A stretch of 64,000 nt of DNA from NCBI RefSeq assembly GCF_056746865.1, contig NZ_CM163382.1; one strand, 5' to 3'. The position numbers and the translations under genes were made by a program. The notes under the pieces were generated by a model. The model worked only from the letters and a program-made list of their open reading frames with translations. It made no database searches and had not been told where the DNA came from. This document shows positions 13,988-56,927 of the stretch, piece after piece (position 1 is the stretch's first letter; every line of letters starts with the position of its first letter).

Positions 13988-14074
13988 TGGTACCCGGAGC
14001 GGGACTTGAACCCGCACAGCGCGAACGCCGAGGGATTTTAAATCCCTTGTGTCTACCGATTCCACCATCCGGGC
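13988..14074 (-). tRNA. leuZ: tRNA-Leu (anticodon UAA)
   Basis: Reverse complement matches tRNA-Leu GCCCGGATGGTGGAATCGGTAGACACAAGGGATTTAAAATCCCTCGGCGTTCGCGCTGTGCGGGTTCAAGTCCCGCTCCGGGTACCA. Confidence 0.95.
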
Positions 14075-14086
14075 TCGGGAAGAAAG

Positions 14087-14160
14087 TGGAGGCGCGTTCC
14101 GGAGTCGAACCGGACTAGACGGATTTGCAATCCGCTACATAACCGCTTTGTTAACGCGCC
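14087..14160 (-). tRNA. cysT: tRNA-Cys (anticodon GCA)
   Basis: Reverse complement matches GGCGCGTTAACAAAGCGGTTATGTAGCGGATTGCAAATCCGTCTAGTCCGGTTCGACTCCGGAACGCGCCTCCA. Confidence 0.95.
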
Positions 14161-14213
14161 AAATTCTTCAGGCCTTTCAGCCAGACATCCGCTGACGCCG
14201 ATGTCTTTTAAAC

Positions 14214-14289
<76 letters not shown>

Positions 14290-24138: not shown

Positions 24139-24238
24139 GCCGGATGCGGCGTAAACGCCTTATCTGGCCTACAAAAATGTGCAAATTCAATAAATTGCAA
24201 TTCAACTTGTAGGCCTGATAAGCGCAGCGCATCAGGCA
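24139..24238. repeat. Pair of inverted REP elements (BIME) in the fliC 3' region
   Basis: gccggatgcggcgtaaacgccttatctggcctac and gtaggcctgataagcgcagcgcatcaggca are classic REP palindromes in opposite orientation. Confidence 0.75.
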
Positions 24239-46597: not shown

Positions 46598-46684
46598 AAA
46601 TCCCGACCCTGAGGGGGTCGGGATGAAACTTGCTTAAGCAAGAAGCACTTAAAAAATTCGTTACACCAGGAAATCTGATGTGTT
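46598..46684 (-). ncRNA. dsrA: DsrA small regulatory RNA
   Basis: Reverse complement matches DsrA: AACACATCAGATTTCCTGGTGTAACGAATTTTTTAAGTGCTTCTTGCTTAAGCAAGTTTCATCCCGACCCCCTCAGGGTCGGGATTT. Confidence 0.93.
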
Positions 46685-50975: not shown

Positions 50976-51896
50976 ATGCGTTTCCGCCAGTTGTTACCGC
51001 TTTTTGGCGCGCTGTTTGCGTTGTATATCATTTGGGGCTCAACCTATTTTGTCATTCGGATTGGCGTGGAAAGCTGGCCTCCGTTAATGATGGCAGGCGT
51101 TCGATTCCTGGCAGCCGGTATTTTATTGCTGGCATTTTTGCTACTGCGCGGACACAAACTCCCCCCGCTACGTCCGCTTCTCAATGCCGCGCTGATTGGC
51201 CTGTTATTGCTGGCTGTCGGTAATGGCATGGTGACGGTTGCCGAACATCAAAATGTTCCTTCCGGCATCGCCGCCGTAGTGGTTGCAACCGTGCCCCTCT
51301 TTACCCTGTGCTTCAGCCGCCTGTTTGGCATTAAAACGCGCAAACTGGAATGGGTGGGTATTGCCATTGGGCTTGCCGGAATCATCATGCTCAATAGCGG
51401 TGGAAATTTAAGCGGCAATCCGTGGGGCGCGATTCTGATTTTAATCGGCTCGATTAGCTGGGCGTTTGGCTCGGTTTATGGCTCGCGCATTACCTTACCT
51501 GTAGGGATGATGGCGGGTGCGATTGAGATGCTGGCGGCAGGCGTGGTGTTAATGATCGCGTCGATGATTGCAGGTGAAAAACTGACGGCACTCCCTTCCC
51601 TTTCAGGCTTCCTTGCGGTCGGCTATCTGGCGCTGTTTGGTTCGATTATCGCCATTAACGCTTATATGTATTTAATCCGCAACGTCAGTCCGGCTCTCGC
51701 CACCAGCTACGCCTACGTTAACCCGGTGGTCGCGGTCTTGCTGGGTACGGGACTGGGCGGAGAAACGCTGTCGAAGATTGAATGGCTGGCGCTCGGCGTA
51801 ATTGTCTTCGCGGTGGTACTGGTCACGTTGGGAAAATATCTCTTCCCGGCAAACCCCGTAGTTGCGCCAGTTATTCAGGACGCATCAAGCGAGTAA
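50976..51896 (+). CDS. yedA: EamA/DMT-family transporter YedA
   Basis: 306 aa ORF with about ten predicted transmembrane segments. Confidence 0.9.
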   Translation: MRFRQLLPLFGALFALYIIWGSTYFVIRIGVESWPPLMMAGVRFLAAGILLLAFLLLRGHKLPPLRPLLNAALIGLLLLAVGNGMVTVAEHQNVPSGIAAVVVATVPLFTLCFSRLFGIKTRKLEWVGIAIGLAGIIMLNSGGNLSGNPWGAILILIGSISWAFGSVYGSRITLPVGMMAGAIEMLAAGVVLMIASMIAGEKLTALPSLSGFLAVGYLALFGSIIAINAYMYLIRNVSPALATSYAYVNPVVAVLLGTGLGGETLSKIEWLALGVIVFAVVLVTLGKYLFPANPVVAPVIQDASSE

Positions 51897-52355
51897 ATGA
51901 ATCCCCTGCGTGTCGATCTGCGCGCTGGCACCTTCGCCGCAGATCCACTCTTCCAGACGCTCGCTAAGCGCTTCATCCGTCAGCTTCTCGCGCCCACGTA
52001 ATGCACACTCCCAGACAATCAATACGCGCCAGCCGAGTTCCTGCAAACGACTGATATCGCGGCGATCGCGTTCAACATTTTTACCTATCTTCTCCAGCCA
52101 GAACTCGGTTCGAGTCGCAGGCACTTTAAACAGATAGCAGTGATGATGATGCCAGAAGCAGCCGTGGGTAAATATCACGCAGCGATATTCATCAACGACA
52201 AAATCCGGGCGTCCGGGCAGACTGGCGTCCTGAACGCGAAATGCCAGGCCCTGCCCGGTTAACAGACTGGCGAGGCGCTTCTCTATCGCCGTATCACGCG
52301 TGGCAATCGCGCGCATATTTTTGCTGCGGGTGGCCTTATCGTGAACGTCGGCCAT
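51885..52355 (-). CDS. vsr: Very-short-patch repair endonuclease
   Basis: ORF 51885-52517; start trimmed to [28 protein letters not shown] (156 aa). Confidence 0.93.
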
Positions 52356-53754
52356 GTTGTGCCTCTTGCTGACGCAACGCCACCGCCTGTTTGATTTTTG
52401 GCTCAAGCAGTTTTGCCACCGCGGCAAAGACCGGCACGACCACCGAGTTACCGAACTGGCGATAGGCCTGAGTGTCCGAAACCGGAATGCGGAATTTCGC
52501 TTCTCCCGGCGCTTCAAAACCCATTAAGCGCGCGCATTCCCGAGGCGTTAACCGACGTGGACGATGTTGCTGATTCAGCGGATCGTCAAAGTCTTTCTCA
52601 CCCGTGGCCATATCCCAGCCGCGATCGATTAAAATTTCCGCGCCATCTTTGTAATAACGCGCAGACAGCGTACGCGTGACGCTTTGCGGATTGTTAGGAT
52701 AGACCATTCCATAACCGAAGCCGTTACCGCGCGCCTGATGTTTTTTCGCATAACGATAGAGGTACTTCCACAGCACCGGCGTCAGGATATATTTCGCCTC
52801 GACCATCGGGTCCAGCAGCTGCGCCAGCGTCACTCGCTGTGCAGGGAAACATTCGCTGATATCACGCAGAGTAAAATCGGCTTTCAGATTAAGATCGCGA
52901 CGAAAACCCACCAGCACGATGCGTTCACGGTGCTGCGGCAGAAAATGTTTACCATCGATGATTTTCGGATCGTCCGGCCCGTTATCTTCTGCATCAGCCA
53001 CGTCATAGCCCAGTTCGTCCAGCGTCTGCATGATGATGCGGAACGTTTTACCCTGGTCGTGGCTTTTCAGGTTTTTGACGTTTTCGAGCACAAACATCGC
53101 CGGACGACGCGCGTCGATAATGCGCACCACATCAAAGAACAGCGTGCCCTGAGTATCGCAGGCAAAACCGTGCGCCCGCCCGAGCGAGTTCTTTTTCGAT
53201 ACGCCAGCCAGCGAAAATGGCTGACAAGGGAAACCGGCCAGTAAAACATCGTGTTCAGGAATGTGTTTACGAATATGTTCCGCCGCCGCCTCATCACTCA
53301 CGCCTTCTTTATGGCTGAGGGTGATGTCGCGGATATCTTCATTAAAATGATGCGTCGCCGGGTCGCAATAATGATTGGCTTTATAAGTGCGTACCGCATG
53401 TTTGTTCCATTCGCTGGTAAACACGCATTGTCCGCCAATCGATTCAAAACCGCGACGGATGCCGCCAATTCCGGCAAATAGATCGATAAAGCGAAACGCA
53501 TAATGCGGATGATGTGCCGGTGGTTTGGGTAACAACGTTTGCAGATGGGCGAACTCTTTCTCACTTAAACGGTGCCATGCCGAGTCATTCGCCAGCGCAC
53601 GTTTTAAAATTGCCGCGCTCCAGTGATTCTCACCCACACCATTAAGCTGCGCCACCAGCGTTTTAACATCATAAATTTGCAGCAGTTTCTCCAGCATTGC
53701 CTGTGCGGCATTCCCGGTGCTGTATGAATCGGTTACTGATATATTTTCCTGCAT
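52336..53754 (-). CDS. dcm: DNA cytosine-5 methyltransferase Dcm
   Basis: ORF 52336-53763; start trimmed to [14 protein letters not shown] (472 aa); C5-MTase motifs FAGIGG and PCQ present; overlaps vsr start. Confidence 0.95.
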
Positions 53755-53820
53755 AGATTTCACCGGCCATCTGAGATGGCCGACAGGTTAACATAATTAC
53801 AGCCATTTAGGGCCACGCGC

Positions 53821-54939: not shown

Positions 54940-55086
54940 GACTCAATCATTTTTTGAACAAATAGATAAATTTTGCGCAACGGCAGTGAATACAGGAAAA
55001 ATCGTTTTGAGCGATTTTATTTATCTTTGATATCGGCTTTATTAATTCATTTAATCAATATATTAGCACTGATTACAATTATACCT

Positions 55087-55177
55087 TTTTATTATTCTGT
55101 GTCATGATGCTTCCGTTATTAGCCTTTTATCGTCTTGTTTATATTTTTTGGGCCGGCATGATGCCGGCTTTTTTTTA
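55087..55177 (+). ncRNA. rseX: Candidate small RNA ending in an orphan terminator (position expected for RseX)
   Basis: Hairpin ggccggcatgatgccggc plus T8 at 55151-55177 with no plus-strand CDS upstream; RseX is known to lie between yedR and the yedS porin gene. 5' end not determined. Confidence 0.4.
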
Positions 55178-56229
55178 TGCCTTCATTAATGTGCGCCTGA
55201 TCACACCAGCCGTTTGGCGCAACAATCATTGATACCCCCTATGTTTCCGCTCAACTCATAACATATTGATATACATTTATAATTTTCATGAATATTTATA
55301 TTTAGAATTCATAATTCTGAATTATATTAAATAGATTAGAAACATTTTGAAATCTTTTAAATACATTTGTTACATGTAATCCTTAAAATAAAATGAACTT
55401 CATAGAATAGTATCCAAATGTGCTTTTTTTGGATAACGGCACTTATTGATATATTCATGAAGATTATAATCACAAGGGAATACATAATGAAAAGAAAAGT
55501 TCTGGCAATGCTGGTCCCGGCGTTATTAGTTGCTGGCGCAGCAAATGCGGCTGAAATTTACAATAAAGATGGCAATAAAGTTGATTTCTACGGCAAGATG
55601 GTTGGCGAACGCATCTGGTCAAATACTGATGATAATAACAGCGAAAACGAAGATACCTCCTATGCTCGTTTCGGTGTTAAAGGTGAAACCCAAATCACCA
55701 GCGAACTGACTGGTTTTGGTCAGTTTGAATACAACCTCGACGCCAGCAAGCCCGAAGGCTCTAATCAGGAAAAAACCCGTTTAACCTTCGCAGGTTTGAA
55801 ATATAACGAGTTAGGATCTTTCGACTATGGTCGTAACTACGGTGTTGCTTATGATGCCGCAGCTTATACCGATATGTTAGTTGAATGGGGTGGTGATTCC
55901 TGGGCTTCCGCTGACAACTTCATGAACGGTCGTACCAACGGTGTTGCAACCTACCGTAACTCTGATTTCTTTGGTCTGGTTGATGGTCTGAATTTTGCTG
56001 TGCAATATCAAGGTAAGAACAGCAATCGTGGCGTTACTAAACAAAACGGTGATGGCTATGCGTTGTCTGTAGACTACAACATCGAAGGTTTTGGTTTTGT
56101 AGGTGCATATAGCAAATCTGATCGTACTAATGAACAAGCTGGTGACGGCTACGGTGATAACGCTGAAGTGTGGTCATTAGCAGCCAAGTATGATGCAAAT
56201 AATATCTATGCAGCGGTAATGACTCCAAC

Positions 56230-56733
56230 TTATTGATAGTGTTTTATGTTCAGATAATGCCCGATGACTTTGTCATGCAGCTCCACCGATTTTGAGAACG
56301 ACAGCGACTTCCGTCCCAGCCGTGCCAGGTGCTGCCTCAGATTCAGGTTATGCCGCTCAATTCGCTGCGTATATCGCTTGCTGATTACGTGCAGCTTTCC
56401 CTTCAGGCGGGATTCATACAGCGGCCAGCCATCCGTCATCCATATCACCACGTCAAAGGGTGACAGCAGGCTCATAAGACGCCCCAGCGTCGCCATCGTG
56501 CGTTCACCGAATACGTGCGCAACAACCGTCTTCCGGAGCCTGTCATACGCGTAAAACAGCCAGCGCTGGCGCGATTTAGCCCCGACATAGCCCCACTGTT
56601 CGTCCATTTCCGCGCAGACGATGACGTCACTGCCCGGCTGTATGCGCGAGGTTACCGACTGCGGCCTGAGTTTTTTAAGTGACGTAAAATCGTGTTGAGG
56701 CCAACGCCCATAATGCGGGCAGTTGCCCGGCAT
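56230..56733 (-). CDS. insB: IS1 InsB reading frame (expressed as InsAB' transposase by -1 frameshift)
   Basis: 167 aa ORF ...[52 protein letters not shown]...; overlaps insA 3' end. Confidence 0.9.
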
Positions 56734-56927
56734 CCAACGCCATTCATGGCCATATCAATGATTTTCTGGTGCGTACCGGGTTGAGAAGCGGTGTAAGTGA
56801 ACTGCAGTTGCCATGTTTTACGGCAGTGAGAGCAGAGATAGCGCTGATGTCCGGCGGTGCTTTTGCCGTTACGCACCACCCCGTCAGTAGCTGAACAGGA
56901 GGGACAGCTGATAGAAACAGAAGCCAC
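56652..56927 (-). CDS. insA: IS1 protein InsA
   Basis: 91 aa [46 protein letters not shown]... Confidence 0.93.

Follow-up and report, generated by a model that had tools for sequence, protein, structure and literature searches.

Overlapping dcm and vsr genes and their convergent neighbor yedA: a K-12-like arrangement with a 20-nucleotide overlap shared by several enterobacterial genera

Dcm converts the inner cytosine of CCWGG to 5-methylcytosine, whose spontaneous deamination gives a T:G mismatch. The Vsr endonuclease nicks the DNA 5' of the mismatched T, a short patch is then resynthesized and the C:G pair is restored, a process stimulated by MutS and MutL. The CCWGG specificity of Dcm has been stated (PMC4924334). 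K-12 Vsr nicks 5' of the T at T:G mismatches within CTWGG/CCWGG, and removal of the first 14 Vsr residues lowers activity and abolishes activation by MutL (PMC2715241). The two genes form one operon (PMC4924334, PMC12907096), and the pair and its overlap are already known, having been described since 1990 (Sohail 1990; Dar & Bhagwat 1993; both as cited in PMC4924334 and PMC4444293). Other bacterial and plasmid pairs are alike in that a Vsr homologue adjoins, and sometimes overlaps, a C5 methyltransferase gene; in plasmids of Klebsiella, Aeromonas, Acidithiobacillus and Thauera both coding sequences lay under one Vsr match. These plasmid and other Vsr proteins are 40-77% identical, act on different target sites and are often part of restriction-modification systems, whereas E. 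coli Dcm is a solitary methyltransferase. The Neisseria vsr genes are linked to methyltransferase genes and Caulobacter VsrA is unlinked to its own methyltransferase (PMC12907096).

The window analyzed here is a stretch of 64,000 nucleotides from contig NZ_CM163382.1 (NCBI RefSeq assembly GCF_056746865.1). Its yedA, vsr and dcm genes (Table 1) have the order, strands and lengths (921/471/1419 nt) of the E. coli K-12 MG1655 genes b1959, b1960 and b1961, from which they differ by 44 nucleotides over the three genes and by one residue in each protein. Neither overlap shows any sequence difference from K-12, nor does the dcm leader, and the RefSeq gene boundaries agree in MG1655 and in a strain that is 100% identical across the segment. 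When the open reading frames were re-read from the sequence, every coordinate given in the initial annotation proved exact, and Pfam and NCBIfam profile matches supported its three gene names. It had also called the pair intact, and neither a frameshift nor a premature stop was found in dcm or vsr. The comparison with a reference that it proposed for the two junctions gave a base for base match with MG1655 at 52336-52355 and 51885-51896. The locus is almost certainly the E. coli chromosomal dcm-vsr operon with its convergent neighbor yedA, intact and in the K-12 arrangement, and no observation spoke against this identification. The closest strain overall was EC6563 (99.95%), with a 2-base offset and an IS1 insertion in the blastn comparison. 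Of 5426 complete E. coli genomes, 5367 carry the module; BL21(DE3) has lost it to an IS1 deletion.

Table 1 Features of the yedA-vsr-dcm segment (positions are those of the window)
Feature	Coordinates	Strand	Description
yedA, EamA/DMT-family exporter, convergent with vsr	50976..51896	+	306 aa, 921 nt, intact ORF; ATG at 50976, TAA at 51894-51896; zero internal stops
Putative 3' untranslated extension of dcm-vsr mRNA	51533..51884	-	Antisense to last third of yedA
vsr, very-short-patch repair T:G mismatch endonuclease	51885..52355	-	156 aa, 471 nt, intact ORF; ATG at 52355, TGA at 51887-51885; zero internal stops
vsr/yedA tail-to-tail overlap	51885..51896	.	12 bp, TCAAGCGAGTAA; identical to K-12
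dcm, DNA cytosine-5 methyltransferase (M.EcoKDcm type, CCWGG)	52336..53754	-	472 aa, 1419 nt, intact ORF; ATG at 53754, TAA at 52338-52336; zero internal stops
dcm/vsr overlap	52336..52355	-	20 nt, ATGGCCGACGTTCACGATAA; identical to K-12
Shine-Dalgarno-like AAGAGG for vsr	52362..52367	-	Within dcm coding sequence, 6 nt upstream of vsr ATG; read from sequence
yedJ-dcm intergenic leader	53755..53820	-	66 nt; identical to K-12

The conserved motifs of C5 methyltransferases are FxGxGG (motif I, which binds AdoMet), PCQ (motif IV, whose Cys is catalytic) and ENV (motif VI), and Dcm of the window has FAGIGG at 93, PCQ at 176-178 (Cys177) and ENV at 224. The protein matched PF00145 (DNA_methylase; 260 bits versus a cut-off of 22, 3.9e-77), PF18284 (DNA_meth_N; 72 bits versus 25) and NCBIfam NF007772 (951 bits versus 710) and is near-identical to PDB entries 3ME5 and 3LX6. 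As 471 of its 472 residues are those of K-12 Dcm, the sole change being Q163K, it would be expected to methylate the second C of CCWGG. Vsr matched PF03852 (134 bits versus a cut-off of 27, 1.2e-39) and TIGR00632 (183 bits versus 98), and the solved E. coli structure PDB 1CW0 was covered over residues 2-156 (E 6.7e-106) with one substitution, T131S. The same substitution is the single difference from the K-12 nicking enzyme. Residues D51, T63, H64, C66, F67, W68, H69, H71, C73, W86 and C117 are all present, of which we take Asp51 and His69 to be catalytic, Cys66, His71, Cys73 and Cys117 to be zinc ligands and Phe67, Trp68 and Trp86 to intercalate into DNA. YedA matched PF00892 (EamA) in two stretches (147 bits) and the NCBIfam YedA equivalog NF008432 (513 bits versus 270), and differs from the K-12 protein only by K293N.

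The vsr start had been placed inside the 3' end of dcm in a different frame, and so it lies: (53754-52355) mod 3 is 1, which puts vsr in the +1 frame of dcm. The overlap spans the first six vsr codons and two bases of the seventh, together with the last six dcm codons and the TAA. Purine-rich elements occupy the position of the vsr Shine-Dalgarno sequence in most related loci. Translationally coupled, overlapping operon genes in general, such as the fli genes (overlaps of 1, 4 and 8 nt) and otsBA (26 nt) of the same window, likewise run in one direction with the downstream start inside the upstream gene and the Shine-Dalgarno sequence in coding sequence. The dcm-vsr overlap exceeds the 1 or 4 nt usual among them and seems to be held by conserved N-terminal codons of the downstream protein. 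Overlap per se is common in the window (16 of 73 adjacent CDS pairs); the non-random part is the retention of exactly 20 nt across several genera.

This retention emerged from a cross-species comparison of our own. Among loci gathered by an HHHH-motif DNA pattern, rather than by an unbiased Vsr profile, the overlap was exactly 20 nt in 16 species-representative loci of Escherichia, Salmonella, Citrobacter, Klebsiella and Enterobacter, and probably 17 nt in two further loci where the vsr start has moved by one codon. Amino acid identity of Dcm across those five genera has fallen to about 77-88%, with the overlap still at 20 nt. The Vsr N-terminus is near-invariant (MADVHDKAT), whereas the Dcm tail is variable (HGRRSR, DGGRSR, HGGCSR, NDGCAQ, GGRPR), and the dcm stop, read in the other frame, sits within conserved Vsr codons 6-7 (GAT/AAT AAG). 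Since the dcm TAA is built from these conserved codons, we infer that the head overlap is held in place by constraint on the Vsr N-terminus, with the C-terminal tail of Dcm drifting freely. No head overlap was found in Cedecea, Shimwellia, Buttiauxella or the Erwiniaceae. The dcm-vsr gap is 10 nt in Cedecea and Shimwellia, 35 nt in Buttiauxella sp. B2 (from its ORF listing) and larger in Mixta and Erwinia; as Cedecea, Shimwellia and Buttiauxella sp. B2 keep the pair with gaps, the overlap is not required for its persistence. Some Erwinia and Pantoea have vsr at the same syntenic position without an adjacent dcm, and in Pantoea septica and P. latae dcm is present but divergent from vsr.

The vsr and yedA 3' ends overlap by the 12 bp that had been reported, at 51885-51896. 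Among Enterobacterales this tail overlap takes values, by genus, of 12, 9, 26-86, 0, -1 to -8 and -54 bp, and because its length ranges so widely between genera the overlap looks incidental, the result of two converging genes lacking a spacer. RNA folds at the junction were not significant relative to shuffled sequences on either strand (z = -0.89 and +0.79). The initial annotation had described the whole as notable for being a compact overlapping-gene module. That description needs qualifying: the head overlap has long been described, and the tail overlap varies in length between genera and gave no sign of a functional part in the module.

The yedJ-dcm leader carries the dcm ribosome binding site GGTGA, a -10-like TTATGTTAAC block and, at 53764-53782, a 19-nt perfect palindrome. 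A consensus promoter scan found no match within the leader, where we would place the dcm promoter. The same scan of the minus strand from 52356 to 53820 found no promoter-like site, and thus none inside dcm for vsr. From the K-12 literature, vsr would be transcribed together with dcm. It would be translated from its own AAGAGG and ATG, the latter lying within the last seven dcm codons in the +1 frame, and ribosomes ending dcm translation would pass across this start, such that Vsr expression is predicted to depend on upstream dcm expression. According to PMC4444293, which cites Dar & Bhagwat 1993, vsr activity is lost as well in the dcm-6 mutant, which has a nonsense codon at position 45 of dcm. 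Either translational coupling or Rho polarity could underlie the dependence physically. An RNA structure that occludes the vsr ribosome binding site until dcm is translated was set aside for lack of evidence, as the RNA fold of 52316-52435 (minus strand) was no better than those of shuffled sequences (z = -0.95). Co-transcription, translational dependence and Rho termination are carried over from K-12 by analogy, both junctions being identical here. Note that Vsr protein is growth-phase regulated according to reference 17 as cited in PMC2715241, and simple coupling fails to explain this regulation.

A search of the minus strand 3' of vsr found no intrinsic terminator. Supplementary file 2 of Adams et al. 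2021 (PMC7815308) places a K-12 Rho termination region at 2030096 on the minus strand, with a Rho score of 10.35 (p 5e-10); transferred to the window this position falls at about 51533, at the resolution of several hundred nt that the published method affords. With no spacer between the convergent vsr and yedA, the dcm-vsr mRNA would run antisense into yedA, continuing for about 350 nt until stopped by Rho. The RNA of this extension has C-rich, G-poor stretches, and the Term-seq tables of the TERMITe paper contained no yedA or vsr entry. Antisense read-through has been shown in K-12 and could in principle let the two units control one another, whether through transcriptional interference or RNA duplex formation. 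Such mutual regulation seems very unlikely; if real, it could link expression of yedA to dcm-vsr activity or add to the growth-phase control of Vsr.

Three other explanations of the locus were weighed. Both overlaps could have arisen by neutral compaction of the genome and play no part in expression, in which case vsr would be made equally well if it were merely adjacent to dcm. The abundance of overlaps among adjacent pairs in the window, the free variation of the tail overlap between genera, the gaps of 10-35 nt in Cedecea, Shimwellia and Buttiauxella sp. B2 and the larger ones in Mixta and Erwinia, and the lack of an occluding RNA structure at the dcm/vsr junction are all as this explanation would have it. 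It does not account for an overlap kept at exactly 20 nt in five genera despite the divergence of Dcm, nor for the loss of Vsr activity caused by an early dcm nonsense mutation, as reported in PMC4444293. However, the conservation of the 20 nt could stem wholly from constraint on the Vsr N-terminus rather than from selection for overlap, and neutrality is therefore only partly excluded for the overlap itself. On balance we consider neutral compaction a somewhat unlikely account and favor dependence of vsr on dcm expression.

To a proposal that vsr is partly self-expressed and tuned by an antisense yedA mRNA that runs through vsr and ends at a hairpin and T-run (52297-52323) we give very little credence. 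It could explain a growth-phase change in Vsr but not Dcm, Vsr being growth-phase regulated according to the secondary citation in PMC2715241, and it draws on the presence of vsr without an adjacent dcm in some Erwinia and Pantoea and on a terminator-like site on the plus strand at 52297-52313, followed by CATATTTTTG. However, over 33 species the stability of this hairpin ranged from 0 to -8.7 kcal/mol (-2.8 in Salmonella), and it gave no covariation: 76.8% of cells were paired versus 74.3% in shuffles, and of 500 shuffles 55 did as well on pairing and 69 on the covariation score. The T-run is simply conserved Ser-Lys-Asn-Met codons read backwards, no promoter-like site was found on the minus strand of dcm, and vsr is absent from the supplementary tables of Adams et al. 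2021 (PMC7815308), so no 3' end is assigned to it there. The hairpin was therefore rejected as the end of yedA mRNA. The chance that a frameshift, a stop or the loss of catalytic residues has left this strain with a decaying or inactive module is close to nil. Nothing spoke for it, Dcm and Vsr each having one substitution relative to K-12, and it is already refuted at the sequence level by the full-length open frames of dcm and vsr, the Dcm catalytic motifs, the Vsr residues for catalysis, zinc binding and DNA intercalation and the existence of other sequenced strains that carry a 100% identical segment.

What this copy adds to the known operon is modest and comparative: a head overlap shared across the core Enterobacteriaceae, a tail overlap of variable length and, from the K-12 data, a Rho-dependent end within yedA. 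The dcm-vsr pair is a textbook case in which the gene for a mutagenic DNA modification lies alongside that for the enzyme dedicated to its repair; the window holds an intact copy. Judged from its genes, the strain should be Dcm+ Vsr+, in contrast to strains of the B lineage.

The dcm, vsr and yedA frames lie exactly where the initial annotation had placed them, and all three were read at full length without an internal stop, in agreement with its view that the module is intact. The start of vsr falls inside the 3' end of dcm in a different frame, and the proposed 12-bp overlap of the vsr and yedA 3' ends was also found. The vsr Shine-Dalgarno sequence, AAGAGG, is within dcm, 6 nt 5' of the vsr ATG. 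A mechanical ORF list gave longer in-frame starts for dcm (GTG 53763) and vsr (TTG 52517), which were rejected: RefSeq uses the ATG codons and the solved Vsr structure begins at Ala2. Overlaps are found in 16 of the 73 adjacent CDS pairs of the window, among them otsBA (26 nt) and yedP/dgcQ (4 bp), the latter convergent like vsr/yedA.

Coordinates of the dcm-vsr-yedA module and other features of the window
Feature	Position	Strand	Details
dcm	ATG 53754 to TAA 52338-52336	minus	1419 nt, 472 aa
vsr	ATG 52355 to TGA 51887-51885	minus	471 nt, 156 aa
yedA	ATG 50976 to TAA 51894-51896	plus	921 nt, 306 aa
dcm/vsr overlap	52336-52355	minus	20 nt, ATGGCCGACGTTCACGATAA, vsr in +1 frame
vsr/yedA tail-to-tail overlap	51885-51896		12 bp, TCAAGCGAGTAA
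Palindrome, yedJ-dcm spacer	53764-53782	minus	19 nt, perfect, CGGCCATCTCAGATGGCCG
Terminator-like hairpin plus T-run	52297-52323	plus (yedA strand)	inside vsr codons 11-20
IS1	56215-56982	minus	768 bp, terminal inverted repeats 23 bp
InsA ORF	56652-56927
InsB ORF	56230-56733
IS1 target duplication	56206-56214 and 56983-56991		9 bp, CTATGCAGC
DsrA	46598-46684	minus	Rfam
RseX	55086-55175	plus	Rfam; terminator 55150-55170
ES036/CssrF	24175-24216	plus	Rfam
tRNA Leu-Cys-Gly cluster	13991-14289	minus	Rfam

Several sequenced E. coli chromosomes match segment 50900-53850 at 100% identity and have yedA, vsr, dcm and yedJ annotated with the same boundaries. The geometry is also that of K-12 MG1655 (b1959-b1961), from which yedA, vsr and dcm differ by 12, 8 and 24 nucleotides and each protein by one residue (YedA K293N, Vsr T131S and Dcm Q163K); no difference falls in either junction or in the 66-nt dcm leader. 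The pairing of Dcm methyltransferase with very-short-patch (VSP) repair was supported by profile, structure and motif matches. Dcm matched PF00145, PF18284 and NCBIfam NF007772 (951 bits) plus the near-identical structures PDB 3ME5 and 3LX6, and carries the methyltransferase motifs FAGIGG, PCQ and ENV. Vsr matched PF03852, TIGR00632 and the E. coli Vsr structures 1CW0, 1VSR and 1ODG, whereas YedA has two EamA domains and matched equivalog NF008432. Vsr retains its catalytic (D51 and H69), zinc-binding (C66, H71, C73 and C117) and intercalating (F67, W68 and W86) residues.

The palindrome immediately before the dcm ribosome binding site is identical in K-12, has one change in other Escherichia and is degenerate in Salmonella and Citrobacter; possible roles are a stem-loop at the 5' end of the dcm mRNA and a site for protein binding. 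Directly upstream is a -10-like block, TTATGTTAAC, which is more widely conserved.

For comparison outside E. coli, a collection of species-representative genomes was scanned for the Vsr motif GCFWHHHHC by means of a degenerate DNA pattern, giving 42 loci (41 in Enterobacterales) in a sample skewed to Vsr proteins carrying the HHHH motif. Junctions were measured at each locus by tblastn and stop-codon extension. The dcm/vsr overlap is exactly 20 nt in the +1 frame in Escherichia (albertii, whittamii and cryptic clades), Salmonella arizonae and diarizonae, Citrobacter, Klebsiella and Enterobacter soli, and is probably 17 nt, with the start displaced by one codon, in one Enterobacter and one Raoultella. 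Gaps replace the overlap in Cedecea and Shimwellia (10 nt), Buttiauxella sp. B2 (only 35 nt) and Erwinia psidii, E. mallotivora and Mixta (30 to 206 nt). At two other Buttiauxella loci the genes are about 0.9 kb apart, separated by an opposite-strand 172-aa ORF (loci L037 6422-6940 and L029 2419-2937) having a signal-peptide-like N-terminus. The Dcm homologue is divergent from vsr in Pantoea septica and P. latae (L020 and L041), and several Erwinia and Pantoea have no dcm within several kb. Among the latter, three loci of Erwinia and Pantoea coffeiphila have a syntenic vsr beside yedA (L026 and L034) or yedI (L018) with a QueH-like ORF upstream. The vsr genes of these five loci look solitary or uncoupled. 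In Klebsiella indica (L022 9036-9738) the Dcm detected upstream of intact vsr is only a 51-residue fragment (query 297-347), and the dcm-side frame still runs to the usual TAA within vsr; this species may have a degraded dcm alongside a retained vsr. Distant bacteria, too, have plasmids on which a methyltransferase gene and vsr are annotated as overlapping.

In every overlapping locus the dcm TAA forms part of vsr codons 6-7 (GAT/AAT then AAG/AAA). The constraint lies on the vsr frame, since the Vsr N-terminus (MADVHDKAT) is nearly invariant among the compared loci while the Dcm tail varies (HGRRSR, DGGRSR, HGGCSR, NDGCAQ or GGRPR), altered by each synonymous vsr change. This fits the finding that Vsr lacking its first 14 residues has lower activity and is not activated by MutL (PMC2715241). 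The vsr/yedA tail overlap is 12 bp in Escherichia, Salmonella and Citrobacter sp. NCU1, 9 bp in other Citrobacter, 26 to 86 bp in Klebsiella, Enterobacter soli, Raoultella and one proteobacterial MAG, 0 to -8 bp in Buttiauxella, Erwinia, Pantoea, Winslowiella and one Enterobacter, and -54 bp in Mixta. As conservation like that of the dcm/vsr overlap was not seen, we read the tail overlap as incidental.

Of 5426 complete E. coli genomes, 5367 carry the dcm-vsr segment, 5358 of them over at least 80% of its length. In BL21(DE3) truncated uvrY and truncated hchA are joined by a single IS1 in the region NC_012971.2 1939844-1941833 (locus L048 14844-16833), a deletion equivalent to about 17.5-57.3 kb of the window that removed sdiA, fli genes, rcsA, dsrA, yedA, vsr, dcm and the porin gene. 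Because of this deletion B strains are Dcm- and non-motile, and the B lineage makes up at least part of the unmatched genomes. In the laboratory K-12 derivative CM13 (NZ_CP114893.1; L047 4452-4523) dcm has been cleanly deleted except for its final 72 nt, and vsr is intact; the deletion was apparently designed so as not to disturb the vsr start in the overlap.

The base methylated by Dcm is the second C of CCWGG, and the T:G mismatches left by deamination are repaired by Vsr (PMC4924334, PMC2715241), which acts mainly in stationary phase according to PMC2715241. The genes form a single operon (PMC4924334, PMC12907096), and the dcm-6 allele, a nonsense mutation in codon 45, is reported to abolish the activity of Vsr as well (PMC4444293, citing Dar & Bhagwat 1993). 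This dependence could be due to translational coupling, Rho polarity or both. No minus-strand promoter-like site was found within dcm, and RNA folding at the dcm/vsr junction did not point to a structure that would mask the vsr ribosome binding site. No intrinsic terminator was found after vsr. Adams et al. 2021 list an MG1655 Rho termination region at 2030096 on the dcm-vsr strand, antisense to yedA (Supplementary file 2, PMC7815308; Rho score 10.35, p 5e-10). The K-12 and window copies of yedA align without indels, so the region transfers to about 51533, roughly 350 nt beyond the vsr stop, where the RNA has C-rich, G-poor stretches. The converse arrangement, in which yedA mRNA covers vsr as an antisense RNA ending at the hairpin within vsr, was rejected: across 33 species the hairpin energy is 0 to -8.7 kcal/mol, stem covariation is not above that of shuffles, the T-run is conserved Ser-Lys-Asn-Met codons in reverse, and vsr is unmentioned in the tables of Adams et al. 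2021, which thus assign it no 3' end.

The window has 156 CCWGG sites (2.44 per kb) and, in raw counts, 27 of the deamination products CTWGG and CCWAG combined; such an excess is what VSP repair acting over a long time would be expected to leave, and general CTAG avoidance may contribute to it. The IS1 of the window interrupts an OmpC-family porin gene (a yedS homologue starting at about 55488) that is intact in the closest strain, EC6563 (otherwise 99.95% identical), and a pseudogene in K-12. The Rfam matches, all above gathering score, are those expected for this E. coli region.

The dcm-vsr overlap was described as early as 1990, and its presence in this strain is nothing unusual. If anything here is new, it would be regulatory cross-talk between dcm-vsr and yedA through a Rho-terminated antisense extension into yedA, which we consider unlikely.
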